Source: a virus
Lineage: Duplodnaviria; Caudoviricetes
IMG/VR virus record: IMGVR_UViG_2791354954_000001
Location: 3,446-67,445 of that record
Reading direction: 5' to 3' (one strand)
Length of the DNA: 64,000 nucleotides
Positions 1-45,914 of this stretch are shown here, piece by piece. Numbering within the stretch: the stretch's first letter is position 1; the number at the start of each line of letters is the position of its first letter. Under the pieces are notes generated by a model. The model did not search any database. It saw nothing but the letters and a program-made list of their open reading frames with translations, and was not told the DNA's origin. The position numbers and the translations under genes are program-made.

Positions 1-147
1 TCCGTTTTTGTCGGTCACAATCCGCTTGCCGTTTGCTTGCCCTTCTAATAATTCAACATATTTTTCTTCACTGATTTCAACCGCACTTTCCGGCACAAAC
101 CCGCCGTAGGCATTATTGTAAAAGCCGTCTTTGTAATAAATTGCCAT
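1..147 (-). CDS. Tail fibre assembly protein (partial, runs off window)
   Basis: Own translation MAIYYKDGFYNNAYGGFVPESAVEISEEKYVELLEGQANGKRIVTDKNG; TAATG overlap with fibre stop. Confidence 0.7.
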   Translation of the reverse strand, partial: MAIYYKDGFYNNAYGGFVPESAVEISEEKYVELLEGQANGKRIVTDKNG

Positions 148-1877
148 TATTTCCATCTCCCGATTGCGAAAAATTGAATGCGCACCGCACCTTGGTTTAC
201 ACTGCCGTGTTCGTACAAGTAGTAGTAACAAGCCGATTTATTTGATTTTGAAAGGACGTTAATGCCGGCATCGTGGTCATCATTCACCGATGTGGTCACT
301 TTTGTTAAAATCAGGGGCGTTTCAACAAAGGCTTGCGCCCAATTAAAGGATTTTTCTTTCCAATCGGCTAGGTCATTTTGACTAATGACATAGGTTTGTA
401 TTATCGTGCCGTCAGGGTGGCGACGTACTTCAAAATTGCCTATTTTTTGATAAGTAAAATCCCTGTCCGTCAGCAGTTTTTCGTTAGTCCAACTGTTACC
501 CGATAAATCATCATTGGTGCGGATGTAATGATTGTTTGTTCCCCCCGAAATAATTTGGGTTTTCTGATTGCCTTGGTCGGCAATCTGAATACCCACCCAG
601 TCTGCCCCCGTAGGCAATCCCAATCCGTTTAATGAATTGTCCCCAAAACTTAAAAAGCGTGTACCGGTGATGTTATTAAGGCTTATATCGCTATTTGCCC
701 AATTTGTTAGTGTAAAGACAGGGTTGGTAAAATCTTCCTGCAATGCCACTGTGCCGTTTTTTTCCGGTGTGTAGATGACATAGTGGTTGCTTCCTGATTG
801 TTTGTTACGGCGAATAAAAGCAAAACGATTTCCGTTGCTTTCCATCAACATTTGGTCATTATTGCTTGGTCTATCAATCCGCAAGCCGCCATAATTTCCG
901 GCAGTTGCGTCAATATAAGCACGGTTTGAATAATGGATGCCACCAAGTTCGGAATTGTCAATTTTTAGTTCCAGTCCATTTCTAGTAGGATTCCATCTTA
1001 ATTGAATGTTGTTATTGCTACTTAACCCACGGATATAGCCATTGCCCCCTTTAAAATCATTAATCGTATTGAGTGCCGTTGTGCCTCTGTCGTAGGCAAG
1101 TTTTGCCGCACGGCTGGTCGCTACGGTTTCCGTTGAGCTGCTATCCACCGCATTGCTTTTTTTATTATTAGGGATGTAATTGGCAAAATTAGCGGTATTC
1201 TGGTTTGAAATTGACCGCACTTTGGCAAGTTCGGCATTGACCCAACTTTGATATGCTACAACCTCACCATCATTCCTGATATGCGGGAAAGCAAGATAAA
1301 CTTGTGAACCGCTATTTGGTATCCATTTCATATTGAATCGGCGGTTGTTAGCGGTATGACTATCAGGATGCACTTCTAAATGCCACACGCCTTGTTTGGC
1401 ACCGAATTTGTAAGCAGCCCACTCACCGTTTACGCTTTCTGCTTTCAACACACCGTAAATTGACTGATTGCCGTTTTTCTTGAGTGTCGCCTCATCAACT
1501 TGGTTGGCTTTGTCTAGTGCATCTACAGCTTTATCGTATGCAGCTTTCACCGCCTTTGACGTAGCCGCTTCCGTTTCCGAATTACTGTTTGTTGAAGAGC
1601 TTAATTGCACTTCACCTTTTTGTTTTGTACCGGCAGTTCTACGATTATTTTCAATAATTTTCACAATCGCGTCATATAATTGCTTTGTTGAATCATCTTT
1701 CGGTTTAAATCCCGCTTTTTGCAATACATAATGGGCTTCGGTTTGTATATCACGCAATCGGTCTTGCACATCGTTAAGCCACGTTTCGGTTACACGTGTG
1801 CCTTGTTCACCGGTTGCCGGATTGCCGTTGTGAAATAATCCGTCTTTCGTATCAATTTTCGGCAATAGATTTTTCAT
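147..1877 (-). CDS. Mu-like tail fibre protein
   Basis: N-terminal FHNGNPATGEQGTRVTETWLN; fibre repeats GEVQLSSSTNS..AATSKAVKAAYD; follows gp48. Confidence 0.88.
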   Translation of the reverse strand: MKNLLPKIDTKDGLFHNGNPATGEQGTRVTETWLNDVQDRLRDIQTEAHYVLQKAGFKPKDDSTKQLYDAIVKIIENNRRTAGTKQKGEVQLSSSTNSNSETEAATSKAVKAAYDKAVDALDKANQVDEATLKKNGNQSIYGVLKAESVNGEWAAYKFGAKQGVWHLEVHPDSHTANNRRFNMKWIPNSGSQVYLAFPHIRNDGEVVAYQSWVNAELAKVRSISNQNTANFANYIPNNKKSNAVDSSSTETVATSRAAKLAYDRGTTALNTINDFKGGNGYIRGLSSNNNIQLRWNPTRNGLELKIDNSELGGIHYSNRAYIDATAGNYGGLRIDRPSNNDQMLMESNGNRFAFIRRNKQSGSNHYVIYTPEKNGTVALQEDFTNPVFTLTNWANSDISLNNITGTRFLSFGDNSLNGLGLPTGADWVGIQIADQGNQKTQIISGGTNNHYIRTNDDLSGNSWTNEKLLTDRDFTYQKIGNFEVRRHPDGTIIQTYVISQNDLADWKEKSFNWAQAFVETPLILTKVTTSVNDDHDAGINVLSKSNKSACYYYLYEHGSVNQGAVRIQFFAIGRWK

Positions 1878-2474: not shown

Positions 2475-3538
2475 TATGTAAGCTCCGTCACCGTCACAGT
2501 GCCAAGCCGAAACCATTCGATTTTGCTTGTTACATCAGCTTTGCGATTAGCGGTTGGTGCAGTAAATTTACGGTCAACCACGCCTACCAAATTATTCACC
2601 ACGGCTTCGCATTGCGACACAATTAAATCATCGCCGGGGATAAGCGTGTTAAAATAATCGGAAAGTGCGGTCTGAATAGCTGTCCGAATTTCGGCAAGCG
2701 TCACCCCGCTGATTTTTACTTTTATCGTAAAATTGACTTTGGTCACATCCGGCTTGACTACTTTGCTTTCTCTTGCCGTAACCGGGCGCACATCATCAAT
2801 ATATTCTTGACAACGGCGCACCGTCTCATCAGACGGCACGTCATTATTGGACGTAATAGCAATATCTACTGTGCCAAGTCCTCGGCGCAACGGATACACA
2901 TAAGCCGCATCAACACCGTCAACAGATAACGCCCAGGTGCGATAGTCGTAGCGATTGCCACCGGCTGGCGGTCGGCGAATAATTTCAAGCAGCCGTTCAA
3001 GCAAAGATGAATCACTTTCGGCATCCGTTGCCCCAATCACCTCATTGAGTATCACATCCGATTGCACGCCAACGGGGGCTGCCATAAAACTCGCTTTAGT
3101 TTCTGTTCGGATATTTTGATTTGCCCCGGTGGCAAGTGAGCGCACCGGCACAACGACTGAACCTTCCCGAGAAATAACCGCACTTTCACTGGTTTCATAA
3201 AAGCGATTATCATCGGTCTTAATTTGCAAACCGGCTTTAATCTCCGCACCCGGTTGTCCGGTAATCAATGCACCAAACCCACTGGCATAAGTCGCATTTC
3301 GGCGGCGAATACCGCGCAATCCGGCGTGCTTTTCAAGAAAATCCGTGTCAGCGGTATCAGGGAAAAATTGTTTGATGACCCATTTTTGATGTGCATAAAT
3401 GCCTTCTGCAACGGCGGCAAGACTGCTTGCGCGCACATAATAATCACTATCTACGCTAATATCGGCTTGCGGTTCAAGGGATTGCACATCACGTAAAATG
3501 GCTTGACGAATATCTTCTAAACTCGGCACGATAAACAT
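2474..3538 (-). CDS. Baseplate J-like protein Mu gp47
   Basis: FPDTAD..LEKHA, PPAGGNRYDY, RRGLGTVD motifs. Confidence 0.9.
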   Translation of the reverse strand: MFIVPSLEDIRQAILRDVQSLEPQADISVDSDYYVRASSLAAVAEGIYAHQKWVIKQFFPDTADTDFLEKHAGLRGIRRRNATYASGFGALITGQPGAEIKAGLQIKTDDNRFYETSESAVISREGSVVVPVRSLATGANQNIRTETKASFMAAPVGVQSDVILNEVIGATDAESDSSLLERLLEIIRRPPAGGNRYDYRTWALSVDGVDAAYVYPLRRGLGTVDIAITSNNDVPSDETVRRCQEYIDDVRPVTARESKVVKPDVTKVNFTIKVKISGVTLAEIRTAIQTALSDYFNTLIPGDDLIVSQCEAVVNNLVGVVDRKFTAPTANRKADVTSKIEWFRLGTVTVTELT

Positions 3539-4568: not shown

Positions 4569-5698
4569 TAGGATGTCCCCTCAAAAATAGATGCAACAGC
4601 ACGTTTTCCTTTTTTCCCTTTTTTACCCTTACGTTTACGGGCTTTTTCCGCTTTCGCCGAATAGGCATCCGGTGTCCACACGCCGTCTTCTTTAAAGCGT
4701 AGTTCGGTTTGCGTGCCACCATTTCGGCTTAACGTAAAACGTCGCCCCATCAAAAAGAAAATGGCATCAATATCATATTCTTCGCAAATGATGTGTACCC
4801 GTTGCCCCGGTTGCCATAATGTCCCGTCTTGCATTTTATGATCCGGCACAATAATCGTGAGCGTAAAACCCTCTAAAATACTGTCGGCAATATACTTCTT
4901 CGCCCACTTTTGCAGTGCTTCAAGATTATCCACATCTGACACAACCACAGTTTTGGGTTTATAAGTCGTCATATCCGGCGCGCGATAAACCCATTTCAAA
5001 TCATTTTTATTGTCTGTGCCTTGCTTACCGTGGCTTTGCGCAAGAAAGGTCACCTCGCTGAAACGATTGGACATATCAAAGGTTAAATCCGCTTGCTCAA
5101 AGTTATTGCGCTTGCCGTCTTTGGTGCAACAAAGTGTCGCTACAGGCGGCGTACTGTAATCTGCGCCACCTACAATCAATGTGCCATTTGGCTCAAACCA
5201 AATATGCACCCCGGCAGCATTTGCACAGCGCATTGCCGCATTCCACGCGGTTTCGCCTACTTCAATGTCCACTTTATCCAGTGTTGGGTTGTTTTCGGCT
5301 TTGAGTTGCACTTGTTTAATCCCAAGCGGCGCAACAATTTTTTTAATGGCATCTAACACCGTCAAGCCTTTTACATTCGTAATAGGGGCGGAGCAGTCCA
5401 CTAAAATGCTCGCACGGTCGCGACCGTTTAAACTATAAGAACGTCCCATTTTACCGATTGAATGCTGTGTCGTATCCACAATGCCCGTCATCACCAACTC
5501 ATTATTTATTCGCACTTTGACTTCCGCCCCTGAAAAATCAGGCAAGACAGTGCTGTCAGACGGCACACCCAAATCAAATCGAAACGCATCGGCAGGAATT
5601 AAAAAATCGCTATCAATGTCATAGCTTTTCCAACGATTATGCACGCGGCCATCAATTTCAACGACCACGTCGTTGTTATACGGATAATTATTTGACAT
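4568..5698 (-). CDS. Baseplate hub Mu gp44 (P)
   Basis: GRDRASILVDCSAP, RFSEVT, LWQPGQRV motifs; synteny. Confidence 0.9.
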   Translation of the reverse strand: MSNNYPYNNDVVVEIDGRVHNRWKSYDIDSDFLIPADAFRFDLGVPSDSTVLPDFSGAEVKVRINNELVMTGIVDTTQHSIGKMGRSYSLNGRDRASILVDCSAPITNVKGLTVLDAIKKIVAPLGIKQVQLKAENNPTLDKVDIEVGETAWNAAMRCANAAGVHIWFEPNGTLIVGGADYSTPPVATLCCTKDGKRNNFEQADLTFDMSNRFSEVTFLAQSHGKQGTDNKNDLKWVYRAPDMTTYKPKTVVVSDVDNLEALQKWAKKYIADSILEGFTLTIIVPDHKMQDGTLWQPGQRVHIICEEYDIDAIFFLMGRRFTLSRNGGTQTELRFKEDGVWTPDAYSAKAEKARKRKGKKGKKGKRAVASIFEGTS

Positions 5699-16003: not shown

Positions 16004-16127
16004 GTTCCACTTTGTGTGAAAAATAAAAAGAGAAGAGATTTTTACCTCAAACCCATTTTAAAACGTTTTAAAACCGCTTTAAATTGTTTTAAAAAATAAA
16101 GGACGAAAAATGATACCCATAAAAAAG

Positions 16128-16161
16128 AAAATCGCCCTGTGTGCGATTAAGGGCGATTTTT
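16128..16161 (-). terminator. Intrinsic terminator after gpG
   Basis: AAAATCGCCCT...AGGGCGATTTT hairpin with A/T tracts on both sides. Confidence 0.65.
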
Positions 16162-16164
16162 GAT

Positions 16165-16650
16165 TTATTTCATCAGGCTTTGAAAATAACTTTGCACATC
16201 ATCTAAAATATCCGCTTCATCTTGCGGGGTTAAAACAAGGAAAGGGCGTGCCTGAATTTTGCTGCCGGGGTGATCTACCGACTTGCGCACAATACCATTA
16301 AATGCCAACCCTTTTTTTGTTACTGGCTTGATTTTATGCGGTTTGGTTTCTCCGCCAAAATGATGAATAGCCGCATACACTAAATTTGTGCCAACTTGTG
16401 CTTCATCATTGTCCCAACGGGCGTGAATACTATTACGTAATGCACCGCTGTCAATCAGGGGCGAACCACCCGGACGACTTTTTACGCCAAGCCATTTCGG
16501 GCGACCACCGGCTTCAAAGTTCTGATCTACCGCACTTTGCATTGTACCGGCAATCGTGCGCATTAACGGAACATTATAACGAATGCCTTCTGCCACCCGT
16601 TCTAACAGTGCCACCACTTCTTTTTCATTGTTGATTTTTATTTCAATCAT
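16165..16650 (-). CDS. Virion morphogenesis protein Mu gpG
   Basis: LIDSGALRNSI, VGTNLVYAAIHHFGG, ARPFL motifs; start MIEIK. Confidence 0.9.
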   Translation of the reverse strand: MIEIKINNEKEVVALLERVAEGIRYNVPLMRTIAGTMQSAVDQNFEAGGRPKWLGVKSRPGGSPLIDSGALRNSIHARWDNDEAQVGTNLVYAAIHHFGGETKPHKIKPVTKKGLAFNGIVRKSVDHPGSKIQARPFLVLTPQDEADILDDVQSYFQSLMK

Positions 16651-16659
16651 CGTTATATT
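16631..16659 (+). promoter_or_regulatory. sigma70 promoter antisense to head operon
   Basis: TTGATT-17 nt-TATATT; predicted start coincides with the 5' end of the cloverleaf at ~16667. Confidence 0.65.
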
Positions 16660-16666
16660 GTCCTTT

Positions 16667-16762
16667 GCCACTAGAAAAGCGATGAATCTCGAGGATCGCG
16701 GACGATAGGTTGAAAGAGTACCTTGGATTGTGTGTAGGTGGTTCGAGCCCTACCTAGTGGCG
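16667..16762 (+). ncRNA. tRNA-like cloverleaf RNA (non-canonical)
   Basis: 8-bp GCCACTAG/CTAGTGGC closing stem, GCGAT/ATCGC arm, AGGT/ACCT arm, T-arm with GGTTCGAGCCC; no encoded CCA. Confidence 0.65.
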
Positions 16763-18037
16763 TTATTTAAATGCCTTTTTCCATTGTTTTTCACTCACAA
16801 AACGAACAGATTGCATAAATATTTCGTTTTCTTTTCTAAGCACTTTCAACACTGCAACTATTTTTTTACCCTCAATTTGTTTATAAAACTGATACCCAAA
16901 TTCATCCGGTATGACTTTGTCAGGTTTATTAATAACATCAGGTAATAGCGCATATTCTTCAAGCCCAAATCCCTGCCCATCACGGCTATTAAATTGTTTA
17001 ATGAGTGTATCATCCGACAACCACACCGTTGCCGTTTCACTCATTAATGCCTTTTTATCGGTAGCATTTAATACACCGGCCGCAAATTTATATTCACGGC
17101 GAAGTTGATTTCGCACCGCCGTTAAATCGTCCGAGGTCAGTTTCTCGCTTAAATTTAGTCGTTGTTTAGCTTGTTTAAATTCGTTTTCAAACTGCTTAAA
17201 ATCAAATTTAAACCCCTCACCGCCCATTTCACGTTTGGCAAACTGATACGCTAAGGCTTCCGGATATAAATCTAAGTTCGGTTTATAAGTGGTGCGTCCC
17301 ACGTTGTAATCAAACCCACGGTCTGTGACCACCCATTTGTCATCTGACACCTTAAATGCGGTGGTTTTTTCCGTTTGAGTCGCATTGATTTTGCGATTGT
17401 ACTCAATCAAGCGTTCTTGGCTTTCGCCGACCACAAGATGACGCCGCGCAATATCCCGCTCGGCAAGGGCAATCACCGAGCAACGACAATTAAAGCCATT
17501 CGGGGGATAAAACACATTCCAAAATGGGTCATCATAACGATACACTAATCCGCTCATCGCCGAATGGCTTGGGCGGGTTCTGTCATCATTAACCGCCGAA
17601 TATTGCCAATAAGGGCGGCTGTCGGCATTATCCCGCATTTGTTGATAACGCTCGCTCGAATATGCCGCCTGCATATTGGTGCGATAAATGGTCTCTAACC
17701 GCCGTGGCGTACCAAAATATTCACCGGTTTTTGGATCAGCCAGTAAATAGCCTTTATCGTAACCGGCAATCCAACCTTTCTTTTTAAAATGCTCAAAAAT
17801 GCCTTTTTTCCACTCGCCGAAAGATTGTCCTTGTTGCTGTGCTTCAATCAGTGATTGGTAAATATCTTTCGTCATTTCAAGACTTGAAAGATTGGCAATA
17901 CGTGTTGCTTTTGCCCGTGCGCTGTCCATCAAGCCTTTTTCATCAATATGATCTAAAAAGGCTTTTTTACTTTTCAAAAATTCAATGGCTTTTTTCGGCG
18001 GTAAGCCTAATGCAAAACTAAGGTTTCGTTTTGGCAT
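16763..18037 (-). CDS. MuF (gp30) head morphogenesis protein with C-terminal extension (PBECR-like nuclease fold suspected)
   Basis: RLETIYRTN, RTRPSH, PPNGFNCRC motifs plus ~170 extra residues after GFDYNVG. Confidence 0.85.
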   Translation of the reverse strand: MPKRNLSFALGLPPKKAIEFLKSKKAFLDHIDEKGLMDSARAKATRIANLSSLEMTKDIYQSLIEAQQQGQSFGEWKKGIFEHFKKKGWIAGYDKGYLLADPKTGEYFGTPRRLETIYRTNMQAAYSSERYQQMRDNADSRPYWQYSAVNDDRTRPSHSAMSGLVYRYDDPFWNVFYPPNGFNCRCSVIALAERDIARRHLVVGESQERLIEYNRKINATQTEKTTAFKVSDDKWVVTDRGFDYNVGRTTYKPNLDLYPEALAYQFAKREMGGEGFKFDFKQFENEFKQAKQRLNLSEKLTSDDLTAVRNQLRREYKFAAGVLNATDKKALMSETATVWLSDDTLIKQFNSRDGQGFGLEEYALLPDVINKPDKVIPDEFGYQFYKQIEGKKIVAVLKVLRKENEIFMQSVRFVSEKQWKKAFK

Positions 18038-19682
18038 TGGACACTCCAAGCAGTTCGGCTAAAAACACCGCACGGGTTAAATACTCGTGATGGGCTTTTG
18101 AGGTTAATTCCGGATAAAGGGTTGCAAGTTTTTCCTGCGCTTCTTCATAAGAATGACAAGACAACATCACCCGCACCGCTTTTTGTACCATTGGATCAAG
18201 TTGTTGATTAAAATCCACCTGTTCCAAGGCTTCGTCTAAACTTTCATCCAACCACGCCTGCTCATCCCTTTCCTCTGATGTTTTCGACAATGCGACCACT
18301 TTTTTACCCAAACACCCGTCACACTGACAACCGACCACGTGGGCGGCAGAAGATTGAGAAGAAAGTGCGGTGGTTTTTTTCGGTGTTTTTTCTTCGTTTA
18401 AATCGGTTTTAACTGCGCTTTGAAAAGGTTTTAACAGTTCGTCATCTTCCTGTGCTTCCGGAATACCGAGTTTATCTCTTGCCCAGCTTTCCGGCACTTT
18501 CACGCCAATTTGCACCAGTTTTGGCAATGCTTCCGCGAGTACAGATAAATCGTCATATTCTTTGGTATCAAACTCAAAGTACGGCACACGGTGCGGCGCG
18601 ATATTTGGATCAACGTTAATTTGTAAATACGGCAAAATAATTTGTTGGGTGATGGTTTGAGCGATTTGCTTGGCATCACTTATCATCAAATCACGGCGTA
18701 CCTCGTTATGCACGTTGCCGAGCGCATTGGTTGAGCTTTTACCATCCGCGCCACTGGTTAAAGTTTGCCCCAAAATTAAGCGTGCAATGGATTTTTCGCA
18801 CCAATCGACCATTTGCAAAAAGGGATTATTGCCTGCTGATGTACCCGTAGCTACATTGTGCAACTCAATTTGCATTGACTCCGGCATAATCCCCGCCGCA
18901 TTGTGACCGATTTCGGCAAGGGCGCGCAGTAATGTTTGTTTTTCCTTATGCGTTGCCCCCGCCCCATATTTCCCGATACGAATAGGCATACCGTAAAGCT
19001 CTAAAAACTCCGCAAAATCCCGCACGGAATAGTGCTTATACATATAAAGCCACGCCAACGTGCGGTATAACCCATCACGGGCTAATTGGGTTGAGCGGGA
19101 TTTATGACGATGCACCACCCAGCCAAAAGGGCGTAGCGGCTCACCGGTTGGATTATCCGGTGTGCGTAATAAAAGATTGTCGTGTTTATCAAGGTTAAAC
19201 CACGATTGCGGACAAGGTTTAAACCCTTTCGGTATCCATTTGCCGTCCACTTGCGCCCATTGGATTTCAAGGGCGGCAAAACCGTGTCCTACCGCATCCA
19301 TTAAATCCACAAACAAATCTTCAAGGTTTGGATATTGATGAAACAGTTCATCAATTTCCGCTTGCAGTTTTTCTTCTGCGGGCGTGGCGTTGCGTGGTTC
19401 AATAATACGCCAGTCAAGGGTCAATACTGACCGCTTGCGGGTCATCATATTGGCGGCAATGCTGCTGTCTTGTTCTTCAATATCCATAAAAAGCTGATGC
19501 TGCGCCTGAATATCGCCGTTTTCAGCGTCCTCTAAAATGCTTTTGAGTTTGCCCGGGGTAATTTTTGCCGAAGGGTGATCATCCAGCACCCGACCCGTTT
19601 CGGTCACACGGGCTTCATCGGTTTGTGTTTCTTCGGTTTCGCTTGGCTTAAAAAAGCCTTTTACTTTATCTAAAAATCCCAT
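18018..19682 (-). CDS. Portal protein Mu gp29 (DUF935)
   Basis: FLELYGMPIRIGKY, ILGQTLTS, ALGNVHNEVRRD motifs. Confidence 0.93.
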   Translation of the reverse strand: MGFLDKVKGFFKPSETEETQTDEARVTETGRVLDDHPSAKITPGKLKSILEDAENGDIQAQHQLFMDIEEQDSSIAANMMTRKRSVLTLDWRIIEPRNATPAEEKLQAEIDELFHQYPNLEDLFVDLMDAVGHGFAALEIQWAQVDGKWIPKGFKPCPQSWFNLDKHDNLLLRTPDNPTGEPLRPFGWVVHRHKSRSTQLARDGLYRTLAWLYMYKHYSVRDFAEFLELYGMPIRIGKYGAGATHKEKQTLLRALAEIGHNAAGIMPESMQIELHNVATGTSAGNNPFLQMVDWCEKSIARLILGQTLTSGADGKSSTNALGNVHNEVRRDLMISDAKQIAQTITQQIILPYLQINVDPNIAPHRVPYFEFDTKEYDDLSVLAEALPKLVQIGVKVPESWARDKLGIPEAQEDDELLKPFQSAVKTDLNEEKTPKKTTALSSQSSAAHVVGCQCDGCLGKKVVALSKTSEERDEQAWLDESLDEALEQVDFNQQLDPMVQKAVRVMLSCHSYEEAQEKLATLYPELTSKAHHEYLTRAVFLAELLGVSNAKTKP

Positions 19683-40918: not shown

Positions 40919-40975
40919 TTTGATCGTCCTTTGAGATAAGCTTTAACACTCACCACCGCAGAGACCAATCATTGG

Positions 40976-41051
40976 TGGTGAACTGAACGGAATTGGTCTT
41001 ACCGCTCTCAAAGGTTCACGGCGTCCTTTCGGACTTCCATTCAGCTCACCA
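40976..41051 (-). ncRNA. C4-like antisense RNA, module 2
   Basis: TGGTGAGCTGAATGG/CCGTTCAGTTCACCA stem, GTCC-GAAA-GGAC hairpin, loops complementary to two box pairs. Confidence 0.78.
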
Positions 41052-41192
41052 TAGAGAACTTTTTCAGAAATTTCTGAAAAAGGTTGATTTGCTGTTTTGC
41101 AGATATAAAAAAACACGCTTTGAGGCGTGCTATCATCCGCCCTTTGAGATATTTCAGGAGACCAATCCCGACTTCCGTGTGGAAGTGTTTGA

Positions 41193-45797: not shown

Positions 45798-45875
45798 GGT
45801 CGGCAGTGCGAAGAATAAAACACCCGCAAGGGAAATAATTCCGCCTGATTGAACACAGGTTTTGAGCTGCCGACC
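45798..45875 (+). ncRNA. C4-like antisense RNA, module 3 (overlapped by Ash-like ORF)
   Basis: GGTCGGCAG/CTGCCGACC stem, CCC-GCAA-GGG hairpin, TTGAACA and TTTTGAG complementary to boxes at 45701-45721 and 45895-45914. Confidence 0.75.
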
Positions 45876-45914
45876 GCCCGAATATCGGGATTTCTCTCAA
45901 AAGGAAATGTTCAA

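Follow-up and report, generated by a model that had tools for sequence, protein, structure and literature searches.

A tRNA-shaped RNA gene accompanies one type of PBECR3 tail on the phage head protein MuF

Introduction

MuF polymorphic toxins join a MuF N-terminal domain to a variable C-terminal domain of toxin type. A small "immunity" slot follows the gene, and 89.4% of 191 MuF toxin genes precede an open reading frame (ORF) of <150 amino acids (aa) (Jamet et al. 2017, PMC5576092). The tails are mosaic, and the immunity genes also occur as orphans and in arrays. Phage Mu GpF is treated in the same work as a monodomain, "short" MuF. We describe a MuF locus with all of these polymorphic features, except that the slot is filled by an RNA gene, encoded on the other strand, and not by a small ORF. 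The stretch analyzed, hereafter the window, is 64,000 nucleotides (nt) long and comes from a virus of the Caudoviricetes (Duplodnaviria; IMG/VR record IMGVR_UViG_2791354954_000001, positions 3,446 to 67,445). The RNA, of ~95 nt, is encoded between the MuF gene (gene F) and gene G of this Mu-like prophage, and has the four-armed outline of a tRNA.

The MuF tail in the window belongs to the Pfam family PBECR3. Iyer, Burroughs, Anand, de Souza and Aravind (2017, PMC5512222) predicted that PBECR/MuF-C domains are virion-delivered ribonucleases (RNases), with RNA binding as the predicted role of inactive versions. No partner RNA is described in the parts of that paper used here, whereas the tail studied here is accompanied by one.

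An endoribonuclease-fold protein encoded beside a structured, pseudoknotted RNA is also the arrangement of the type III toxin–antitoxin systems (ToxIN, CptIN and TenpIN). There the RNA neutralizes the protein, as we propose here; in both cases the RNA may be tandem and there is a link to phages. The type III antitoxin consists of short identical repeats upstream in the toxin operon, whereas the RNA described here is a four-way junction of ~95 nt, with its own promoter, convergent with the protein gene. Type III toxins are of the ToxN, CptN and TenpN families, whereas the domain here is of BECR type and is fused to a virion structural protein. The type III antitoxin is processed by its toxin.

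Two other kinds of RNA invite comparison. The prohead or packaging RNA (pRNA) of phi29 is a structured phage RNA that belongs with the head and portal module, and its loops show covarying Watson–Crick complementarity. The loop–loop pairing of pRNA is intermolecular. The RNA described here differs from it in sequence, structure and phage group, its partner would be MuF and not the portal, and pRNA is not known to occur in arrays or as orphan copies in hosts. With tRNA and tRNA-like RNAs (the tRNA-like domain of tmRNA, YrlA and viral tRNA-like structures), it shares the four-arm topology, coaxial stacking of the acceptor-like stem and the T-like arm, the T-like loop GTTCGAG and an "elbow" formed where D-loop and T-loop meet. 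It differs from them in an 8-base-pair (bp) closing stem, a 4-nt first junction and a 7-nt second junction, and a Watson–Crick kissing helix of 5-6 bp takes the place of the tRNA contacts G18/G19–Psi55/C56. It also lacks a conserved anticodon loop and an encoded CCA end, and escapes detection by ARAGORN and Rfam. No description of the RNA was found in the literature searched at the level of abstracts and selected passages, and the gene is apparently undescribed so far.

Results

A four-way junction RNA with a loop–loop pseudoknot

The RNA gene occupies positions 16667-16761 on the plus strand. The covariance model that we built for it (R1) places the 3' end at 16761 and scores the element at 112.1 bits (E 2e-31), as the sole real match in the window; the RNA is single-copy in the genome. 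It lies in the 112-nt gap between genes F and G, in which no conserved ORF was found. The RNA is antisense to the late operon and convergent with the MuF gene, whose stop codon (16763-16765) lies 1 nt past the RNA 3' end.

Four arms, P1 to P4, meet in a tRNA-like topology. P1 is the acceptor-like closing stem, which pairs GCCACTAG (16667-16674) with CTAGTGGC (16754-16761) over 8 bp. It is followed by J1/2, AAAA (16675-16678), which is invariant in the 27-copy alignment described below and A-rich in GC-rich relatives. The D-like arm P2 pairs GCGAT (16679-16683) with ATCGC (16695-16699) around an 11-nt loop, GAATCTCGAGG. J2/3 (GGACGAT, 7 nt) leads to the "anticodon-like" arm P3, AGGT (16707-16710) with ACCT (16720-16723), which has a 9-nt loop, TGAAAGAGT. 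At the J3/4–P4 boundary stands GUGUG (16730-16734), corresponding to the invariant alignment columns G64 T65 G66 T67 G68. The T-like arm P4 pairs GTAGG(T)G (16734-16740) with CCCTAC (16748-16753) around the 7-nt loop GTTCGAG, and is stacked straight on P1, with a J4/1 of 0 nt. The P2 and P4 loops are joined by a kissing helix of 5-6 bp, in the window CTCGA (16688-16692) with TCGAG (16743-16747).

An earlier note on the window, made from its sequence alone, had drawn a cloverleaf at 16667-16762. The P1, P2 and P3 arms that it gave, with the 9-nt loop, are all present in the sequence, as are the promoter and the MuF stop codon at 16763. Its start coordinate stands, and R1 moves the end by one position. 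The stacking of the T-arm on the acceptor-like stem also holds, while the pairing proposed for that arm (GG-TTCGAGC-CC) gives way to the P4 described above. The loop–loop pseudoknot was not part of that description and was revealed by alignment.

Covariation supports every helix

Two sets of copies were evaluated, and the window copies (L001 and L003) were excluded from the alignments. Covariation set A2 is a MAFFT alignment of 27 distinct copies with a hand-drawn structure. The second set comprises 41 distinct RNAs chosen via the protein. R1 was built without the pseudoknot. Alignments obtained by model search lean towards the R1 helices; neither A2, which was aligned with MAFFT only, nor the pseudoknot, which R1 leaves out, is affected by this. 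Related genomes do not count as independent samples.

Within A2, 97.0% of 724 cells are paired, and two-sided changes occur at 15 of the 27 pairs. The covariation score of A2 was reached by none of 500 shuffles, and controls in which the pairing partners were slid were 30-37% paired. The 41-RNA set gave 97.7% paired cells and two-sided changes at 22/27 pairs, with slid controls at up to 40%. Covariation, which the earlier note had proposed as a check, is very strong by these counts.

The signal is spread over the whole fold. P1 has two-sided changes at all eight of its pairs in the 41-RNA set, where 98.8% of its cells are paired, and four of the five counted P4 pairs covary in that set. The P3 stem covaries in both alignments. 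Close copies, as in the 27-copy alignment, all share the same P2, and distant copies show the covarying versions GCGGU/ACCGC and GCAGU/ACUGC. The kissing helix, which the model leaves out, is 100% paired in A2 and 99.5% paired in the 41-RNA set, with 2-3 covarying pairs per set, three in the 41-RNA set. Complementarity of at least 4-5 bp between the two loops was found in 92/92 distinct MuF-adjacent copies and takes at least nine different sequences, including CUCGA/UCGAG, CUCCC/GGGAG, CUCGG/CCGAG, CUCUC/GAGAG, CUCGC/GCGAG, CAGCC/GGUUG and CUGC/GCAG. The core that is conserved comprises the end of P1 next to the junction, the A-rich J1/2, P2 (AAUCU in the loop), GUGUG, P4 and the kissing helix. 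Conservation is lowest in P3 and its loop. Many Pasteurellaceae copies have a UGAAAKAG loop there, Neisseriaceae copies a GNRA tetraloop, locus L032 a GTAA tetraloop and array copies long hairpins. The structured RNA gene is real, and its fold is shown by covariation.

The RNA is encoded on the plus strand behind a conserved promoter

At paired positions the plus strand carries 29 G-U cells, as against 4 A-C/C-A cells, which would be G-U on the minus strand. Because of these counts, and because of the promoter, the RNA is assigned to the plus strand. A structure on the mRNA (minus) strand is ruled out by the same counts, despite a better and significant single-sequence fold (z -2.87).

The promoter is of sigma-70 type and was located by consensus scan on the plus strand, with a -35 box TTGATT (16631-16636), a 17-nt spacer and a -10 box TATATT (16654-16659). 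It overlies the first codons and 5' leader of gene G, which is on the opposite strand. The pattern TTGNNN-16..18-TANNNT, ending 3-11 nt before P1, occurs in 71/97 distinct copies, compared with 17/1940 positions drawn at random from the same loci. Most of the remaining 26 copies are second members of tandem pairs spaced by ~6 nt, or of a Neisseriaceae type with an extended -10 (TGGTATKAT). Phage SuMu retains the promoter despite a different upstream gene, and so do orphan copies; the coding sequence of gene G alone therefore does not account for it. Past the RNA, the same kind of scan gave a weak terminator-like hairpin with a U-rich flank on the plus strand (16759-16785; GGCGTT..AATGCC, then TTTTT), within the last MuF codons. 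At least six T are found in the first 12 nt past P1 in 61/97 distinct copies. A plus-strand RNA of tRNA-like, four-armed topology with its own promoter, as the earlier note had it, is thus borne out by covariation, G-U counts and promoter conservation.

These results bear on whether the element is a functional RNA at all. It could be a chance hairpin, a DNA-level repeat, a miniature transposable element or a decayed tRNA gene; the single-sequence fold energy of the plus strand is ordinary, and P1 resembles terminal inverted repeats. Such an origin would not account for massive two-sided covariation that includes a pseudoknot, for a conserved promoter, or for a fixed position relative to one gene over 46% to 79% GC. 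The element is single-copy in the genome, which rules out a genomic repeat or miniature transposable element. We give a non-functional element next to no chance, and by covariation and promoter conservation it is effectively refuted.

They bear equally on a cis- or trans-acting antisense regulator, which would pair with the late mRNA over the F–G junction and promote its cleavage or alter F and G expression, its orphan copies targeting the transcripts of incoming phages. Transcription converging through the 3' end of F makes perfect complementarity to the late transcript unavoidable. At many loci as much as 11 nt of the RNA lies over the last F codons, and the sense strand folds well, as its z-score shows. 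However, four helices have changed in a compensatory manner, as has a pseudoknot in which both loops are tied up; this indicates selection on the three-dimensional fold of the plus strand, the only strand on which the G-U pairs work. Moreover, the RNA position tracks the F stop codon and not the ribosome site of the next gene: the distance to that gene varies, and in SuMu another ORF stands between. We regard this role as very improbable.

Likeness to tRNA

ARAGORN found no tRNA in the window, in 29 related loci or in 14 further loci, among them the members of the family that most resemble tRNA. Rfam 15 gave nothing over the element at E<=10 save a chance 17.9-bit CRISPR-DR60 match (16640-16671), and nothing, the tRNA clan included, on five distant members at E<=5. 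The ARAGORN search was among the checks suggested in the earlier note. A canonical tRNA is ruled out by ARAGORN and Rfam 15, and a known Rfam family by the lack of any Rfam 15 match at gathering score on the element. That no CCA is encoded had been seen from the window, and none follows P1 in the copies aligned with flanks. Some distant members are more tRNA-like, with a 2-nt UA J1/2, a 4-bp D-like stem and a GTTCGAGTCC T-like loop; ARAGORN still rejects them. The RNA probably derives from, or has converged on, tRNA.

The arm in the anticodon position differs most. Its 9-nt loop in the window is unlike a 7-nt anticodon loop on a 5-bp stem, and is replaced across the RNA family by the tetraloops and long hairpins described above. 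The suggestion that the RNA decoys anticodon nucleases by way of this loop, the second option of the earlier note, is rejected as unlikely because the loop is not conserved.

A wider form of the idea is a tRNA mimic that acts on host machinery without MuF, either as a decoy of tRNA-targeting defence nucleases or as a substrate or titrator of tRNA-processing or tRNA-binding factors. It would draw on the direct stacking of acceptor-like and T-like arms (J4/1 = 0), the contact between D-loop and T-loop, the GTTCGAG(Y)CC T-like loop and the distant members with a UA J1/2 and a 4-bp D-like stem. Orphan copies occur without a neighbouring MuF, and tandem copies ~6 nt apart would need processing of tRNA type. 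The unconserved anticodon-like loop, the lack of an encoded CCA and the failure of ARAGORN and the Rfam tRNA models to match argue the other way. The idea also leaves unexplained why the RNA is tied to one type of MuF tail and is absent beside others in the same hosts. It has little prospect of being right.

The RNA co-occurs with one type of MuF tail

The association was examined from both sides. In a protein-first test, the peptide motif TVW[LF]SD[DE][TS] was the sole criterion for selecting 80 IMG/VR loci. The RNA lies on the opposite strand directly past the ORF in 78/80, and the other two loci end ~30 nt past the ORF. All 78 testable IMG/VR loci with a TVWLSDD..KQ..R-type PBECR3 tail therefore carry the RNA at the same spot. 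In an RNA-first test, a 21-base pattern led to 33 genome loci, of which 27 are real and six are chance matches (<15 bits; L035, L037, L044, L046, L053 and L057, dropped from later counts). The real loci come from many Pasteurellaceae genera and from the Neisseriaceae Bergeriella, Conchiformibius and Neisseria musculi. The same pattern brought up 45/45 real viral loci. The RNA 3' end falls between -11 and +11 nt from the MuF stop codon in 92/93 distinct pairs, and the exception is L080, where the ORF is frameshifted. At that locus (4887-5589) the MuF ORF has lost its stop codon or its frame and reads through the antisense of the RNA, through either a frameshift or an assembly error.

Within 236 genomes of the host family, the RNA stands beside 41/46 above-cutoff PBECR3 places, as found by BLAST or by the model with filters off; one of the 41 is weak (L120, 20.3 bits). 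Of eight sub-cutoff places, L128-L130 only were examined for the RNA. BLAST of the 236 genomes gave RNA matches, some of them partial, in 39 genomes and in 22/50 genera.

The five above-cutoff places without the RNA (L111-L115) form one histidine-bearing subclass in a different head module, in which a scaffold-like gene follows. These MuF-PBECR3 proteins (in genomes G090, G092, G098, G138 and G127) carry the motif IRHTFKQHGN and have the highest Pfam scores, 79-83 bits. A complete ORF of 119 aa with a DUF2513 domain follows MuF-PBECR3 at L113, and a shorter homologous ORF has the same place at L114; both are candidate protein immunities. The Mu-like prophage L130, from the same family of hosts, has a weak histidine-type PBECR3 tail and no RNA, and an ORF of 88 aa fills its F–G slot. 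That ORF (940-1206, minus strand, genome G057) has no Pfam family, and the same genome has two RNA-bearing Mu-like prophages. The RNA was not found in E. coli Mu, whose F and G genes overlap and whose tail could not be aligned. It thus accompanies one tail type only and is absent from Mu, L111-L115 and L130, so that the equal presence beside other or short MuF genes that would have spoken against the earlier note was not seen. The note had also placed the RNA in the immunity slot, and it does occupy the slot that a small ORF fills in L130.

The association reaches far beyond the close relatives. A MuF-tail profile search (E<=0.001) gave 380 matches, many of them short; the four relatives that could be placed are full-length MuF genes and not solo forms of the domain. 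These are GC-rich (IMG/VR, 58-79% GC), and 4/4 have a diverged RNA at the same place, at 49, 41.6, 22.8 and 13.5 bits. P1 covaries in them, and their kissing pairs are CUCCC/GGGAG, CUCGC/GCGAG and UAUC/GAUA. A class-wide sample, in which R1 matched 0/150 genomes of other families under strict filters, says little because these GC-rich relatives exist in IMG/VR.

Among cultured phages, tblastn with the tail found SuMu and Mannheimia phage 3927AP2 only. SuMu has the same element directly after the MuF stop codon, with a compensatory change in P1, the same promoter and a different ORF upstream. Between the RNA and gene G, SuMu carries gp29 (L002, 1248-1448), an extra hypothetical ORF of 66 aa with no Pfam family. 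SuMu MuF is a virion protein by mass spectrometry, and the text of the SuMu paper, in the parts used here, makes no mention of tRNA or non-coding RNA (PMC3447690).

The RNA-linked tail is predicted to have a BECR/RelE-type fold

The MuF gene (16763-18049, minus strand; longest ORF 428 aa) encodes a protein of two parts. Residues 62-193 match Pfam Phage_Mu_F (E 6.2e-26), and the identity of 33% to E. coli Mu gp30 extends over the first ~256 aa only. Residues 321-425 (16775-17089, minus strand) match PBECR3 (PF18812, E 5.3e-16, 59 bits against a cutoff of 30), an RNase-like domain of the BECR fold, with the motif TVWLSDDTLIKQFNSR ... LPD ... EIFMQSVR and no histidine. Apart from Phage_Mu_F and PBECR3, Pfam gave sub-cutoff matches to IstB_IS21 and PBECR2 only, and none to the ToxN, CptN or TenpN families.

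An AlphaFold2 model of the last 135 residues, made from a 25-sequence alignment, has a pLDDT (predicted local distance difference test) of 89.2. When compared with VIA-align, its matches from rank 1 to ~27 are almost all toxins of BECR/RelE/ParE type, at Z 7.7-4.3, which are middling values that point to one fold. The best are 7vd7_A (Z 7.7), BrnT (Z 7.3), CdiA-CT NC101 (Z 6.5) and colicin D (Z 5.7). Foldseek against the PDB gave weak matches only, with nothing at E<=0.001. The tail is thus predicted to have a BECR/RelE-type fold. This, together with the PBECR3 match, agrees with the nuclease-like tail that had been suggested from the window.

The first half of the RNA-linked tail is invariant (TVWLSDDxLIKQxNSR..Y..LP[DE]), and its second half is hypervariable and keeps E-[IL]-[FY]..S-x-R. 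The catalytic histidine of the N-terminal helix is absent from the tail in the window. In the histidine-type motif IRHTFKQHGN, both histidines align with an invariant K and R of the RNA-linked tails. A PBECR family in which arginine replaces the catalytic histidine has been noted (Iyer et al. 2017, PMC5512222), and this alignment fits it. One tail is chimeric: at L097 (553-1854) the body is of the "KEIFVLSFR" class, and the last helix (LVSDKQWRKAFKE) and the adjacent RNA (CUCGA) are of another, which points to a recombination junction at the S-F-R motif.

An RNA so closely linked to a head gene might serve in assembly or as cargo, and we consider this the main rival to the function proposed below. 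The RNA would form a ribonucleoprotein with a possibly non-catalytic MuF tail, either for MuF incorporation and head morphogenesis or to be packaged and delivered with MuF. It would then loosely resemble phi29 pRNA, and the kissing helix could likewise pair between molecules. The gene lies within the head module, and co-occurrence is strict over deep divergence (78/78 and 4/4). The tail has no conserved histidine, RNA binding is predicted for inactive MuF tails (PMC5512222), and MuF is found in SuMu virions (PMC3447690). Complementarity between the loops covaries, which alone cannot separate pairing in cis from pairing in trans. The promoter, however, is of the constitutive sigma-70 type and not of late-promoter type, and E. 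coli Mu and phages with a histidine-type MuF assemble heads without the RNA. The distribution of extra copies, to which we now turn, also tells against it.

Arrays, orphans and mosaic tails

Six diverged copies fill the F–G gap at the Lonepinella locus L040 (1039-1843); a two-copy unit is duplicated within the array, and two pairs are 5-6 nt apart. L010, L117, L125 and L127 have two copies each. The units of the arrays are diverged and 90-106 nt long. Up to six diverged copies in one prophage are hard to explain for an assembly factor.

Other copies stand away from any phage in host chromosomes, which is likewise at odds with assembly or cargo. In Bergeriella (L033, 2029-2793) a four-copy chromosomal array lies between GNAT and DUF4149 genes, near greA, in addition to a prophage copy. 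Further orphan sites lie among housekeeping genes, namely between inositol monophosphatase and SpoU methylase genes, between AcrB and histidine kinase genes (a tandem pair), and at UPF0149 and HslU-like ATPase genes. Genomes G030 and G173 have orphan copies and no PBECR3 match in the genome. The extra copies share 74-98% identity with RNAs that neighbour MuF in other phages. With these observations in view, we judge an assembly or cargo role clearly unlikely.

Metagenome contigs gave 61 model matches. An intact tail-bearing ORF is abutted by 38, seven have too little flank and 16 do not abut one; of those 16, ~8 are beside MuF stubs of 26-83 aa and ~8 are orphans. The RNA has thus outlived the MuF gene at L248, L261, L267, L216, L260, L272, L275 and L278, where MuF remnants of 26-83 codons are left.

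The tails are also mosaic. Sixteen tail clusters are shuffled over 12 N-terminal MuF clusters, and the variable half-domain and the RNA therefore travel together as one cassette. The class of kissing helix goes with the tail cluster without being unique to it: several clusters share CUCGA or CUCCC. For that reason a one-to-one code between kissing-loop sequence and tail class is unsupported. As read from the sequences, the hypervariable half-domain, the tandem copies, the orphans and the RNAs beside MuF stubs fit an immunity-like role.

Neighbouring genes and other RNAs in the window

The portal gene (18021-19682, minus strand) belongs to the late genes, and gene G (virion morphogenesis; 16168-16650, minus strand) matches Pfam Phage_tail_S (E 1.7e-18). 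The start codon of gene G is at 16648-16650, and its Shine–Dalgarno sequence AAGGA is at 16661-16665. Just past gene G is a GC-rich hairpin (16096-16160), AAAAUCGCCC...GGGCGAUUUU, flanked on either side by runs of A and U. It resembles a bidirectional terminator that would end the first late operon, and has several weak Rfam matches (e.g., RefA9, 32.3 bits, E 0.011). The sole matches in the window at Rfam gathering score are a C4 antisense RNA (40971-41056, minus strand, 58.8 bits) and sRNA-Xcc1 (45798-45883, plus strand, 70.1 bits).

Discussion

The fold and strand of the RNA, the conservation of its promoter, its strict co-occurrence with one type of PBECR3 tail, and its arrays and orphans are observed. 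What the RNA does must be judged from these features. Our proposal, which is tentative, is that it binds the MuF tail and neutralizes it, as the antidote or immunity RNA of a polymorphic-toxin-like system. The proposal is made because a constitutive-type promoter lies in the late operon, because the RNA is strictly linked to a hypervariable BECR-type tail, and because copies are stacked and orphaned.

According to this proposal, transcription of the RNA would start at its own promoter, of constitutive type, and run counter to the late operon. Since the promoter is of that type and opposes the operon, the RNA should be made both in lysogens and during lytic growth. It would be the dedicated partner of one kind of PBECR3 (BECR-fold) C-terminal domain on MuF. 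The folded RNA would bind the tail and neutralize it, in the role that an immunity protein or antitoxin has elsewhere. Lysogens, and hosts with orphan copies, may thereby be protected from MuF delivered or made by related phages. We infer transcription, tail binding and neutralization alike.

Several observations weigh against an antidote. MuF is a late virion protein made in a dying cell, which has no obvious need of immunity. There is no conserved histidine column in 79 distinct RNA-linked tails, where histidine occurs in at most 17/79 at any column and is wholly absent from 15/79, including the tail in the window. Some MuF tails are regarded as inactive RNA binders (Iyer et al. 2017, PMC5512222), and an antidote is superfluous for a domain that does not cut RNA. 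An RNA required for head assembly, or for MuF to function, would be expected to show equally perfect co-occurrence. Kissing-loop and tail classes do not correspond one to one, and mere linkage may account for the joint inheritance of tail and RNA, which lie side by side. Lastly, the plus-strand minimum free energy fold of the window copy is ordinary (z -0.43; 59/200 shuffles fold as well).

We also considered, as a more doubtful possibility, an RNA-based layer of immunity. Each injected or carried variant of the BECR tail would be matched by a tRNA-shaped RNA, prophages would stack such RNAs, and chromosomal orphan arrays would be a heritable defence against superinfecting phages. The elbow formed by the D-loop/T-loop kissing helix and the acceptor-like stem would then be the recognition surfaces. 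A pure antisense role and a MuF-independent tRNA mimic explain less than either the antidote or the assembly and cargo readings.

Whatever its function, the RNA founds a new structured-RNA family, with very strong covariation and a pseudoknot, that is suited to Rfam and to structural work. If it neutralizes or serves the MuF tail, it would join tRNA-like RNAs, RNA antitoxins and phage polymorphic toxins or "polyvalent" virion proteins, which have been separate fields so far. It would then also explain why an immunity ORF is missing beside these MuF genes, offer a first experimental handle on the role of the widespread PBECR tails of MuF, a question that dates from 2017, and suggest that bacteria can hold small RNA genes as immunity against phages. 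If the RNA-based layer of immunity exists, this would be the first RNA to stand in for an immunity protein against a polymorphic toxin domain, and the tRNA fold would have gained a new use.

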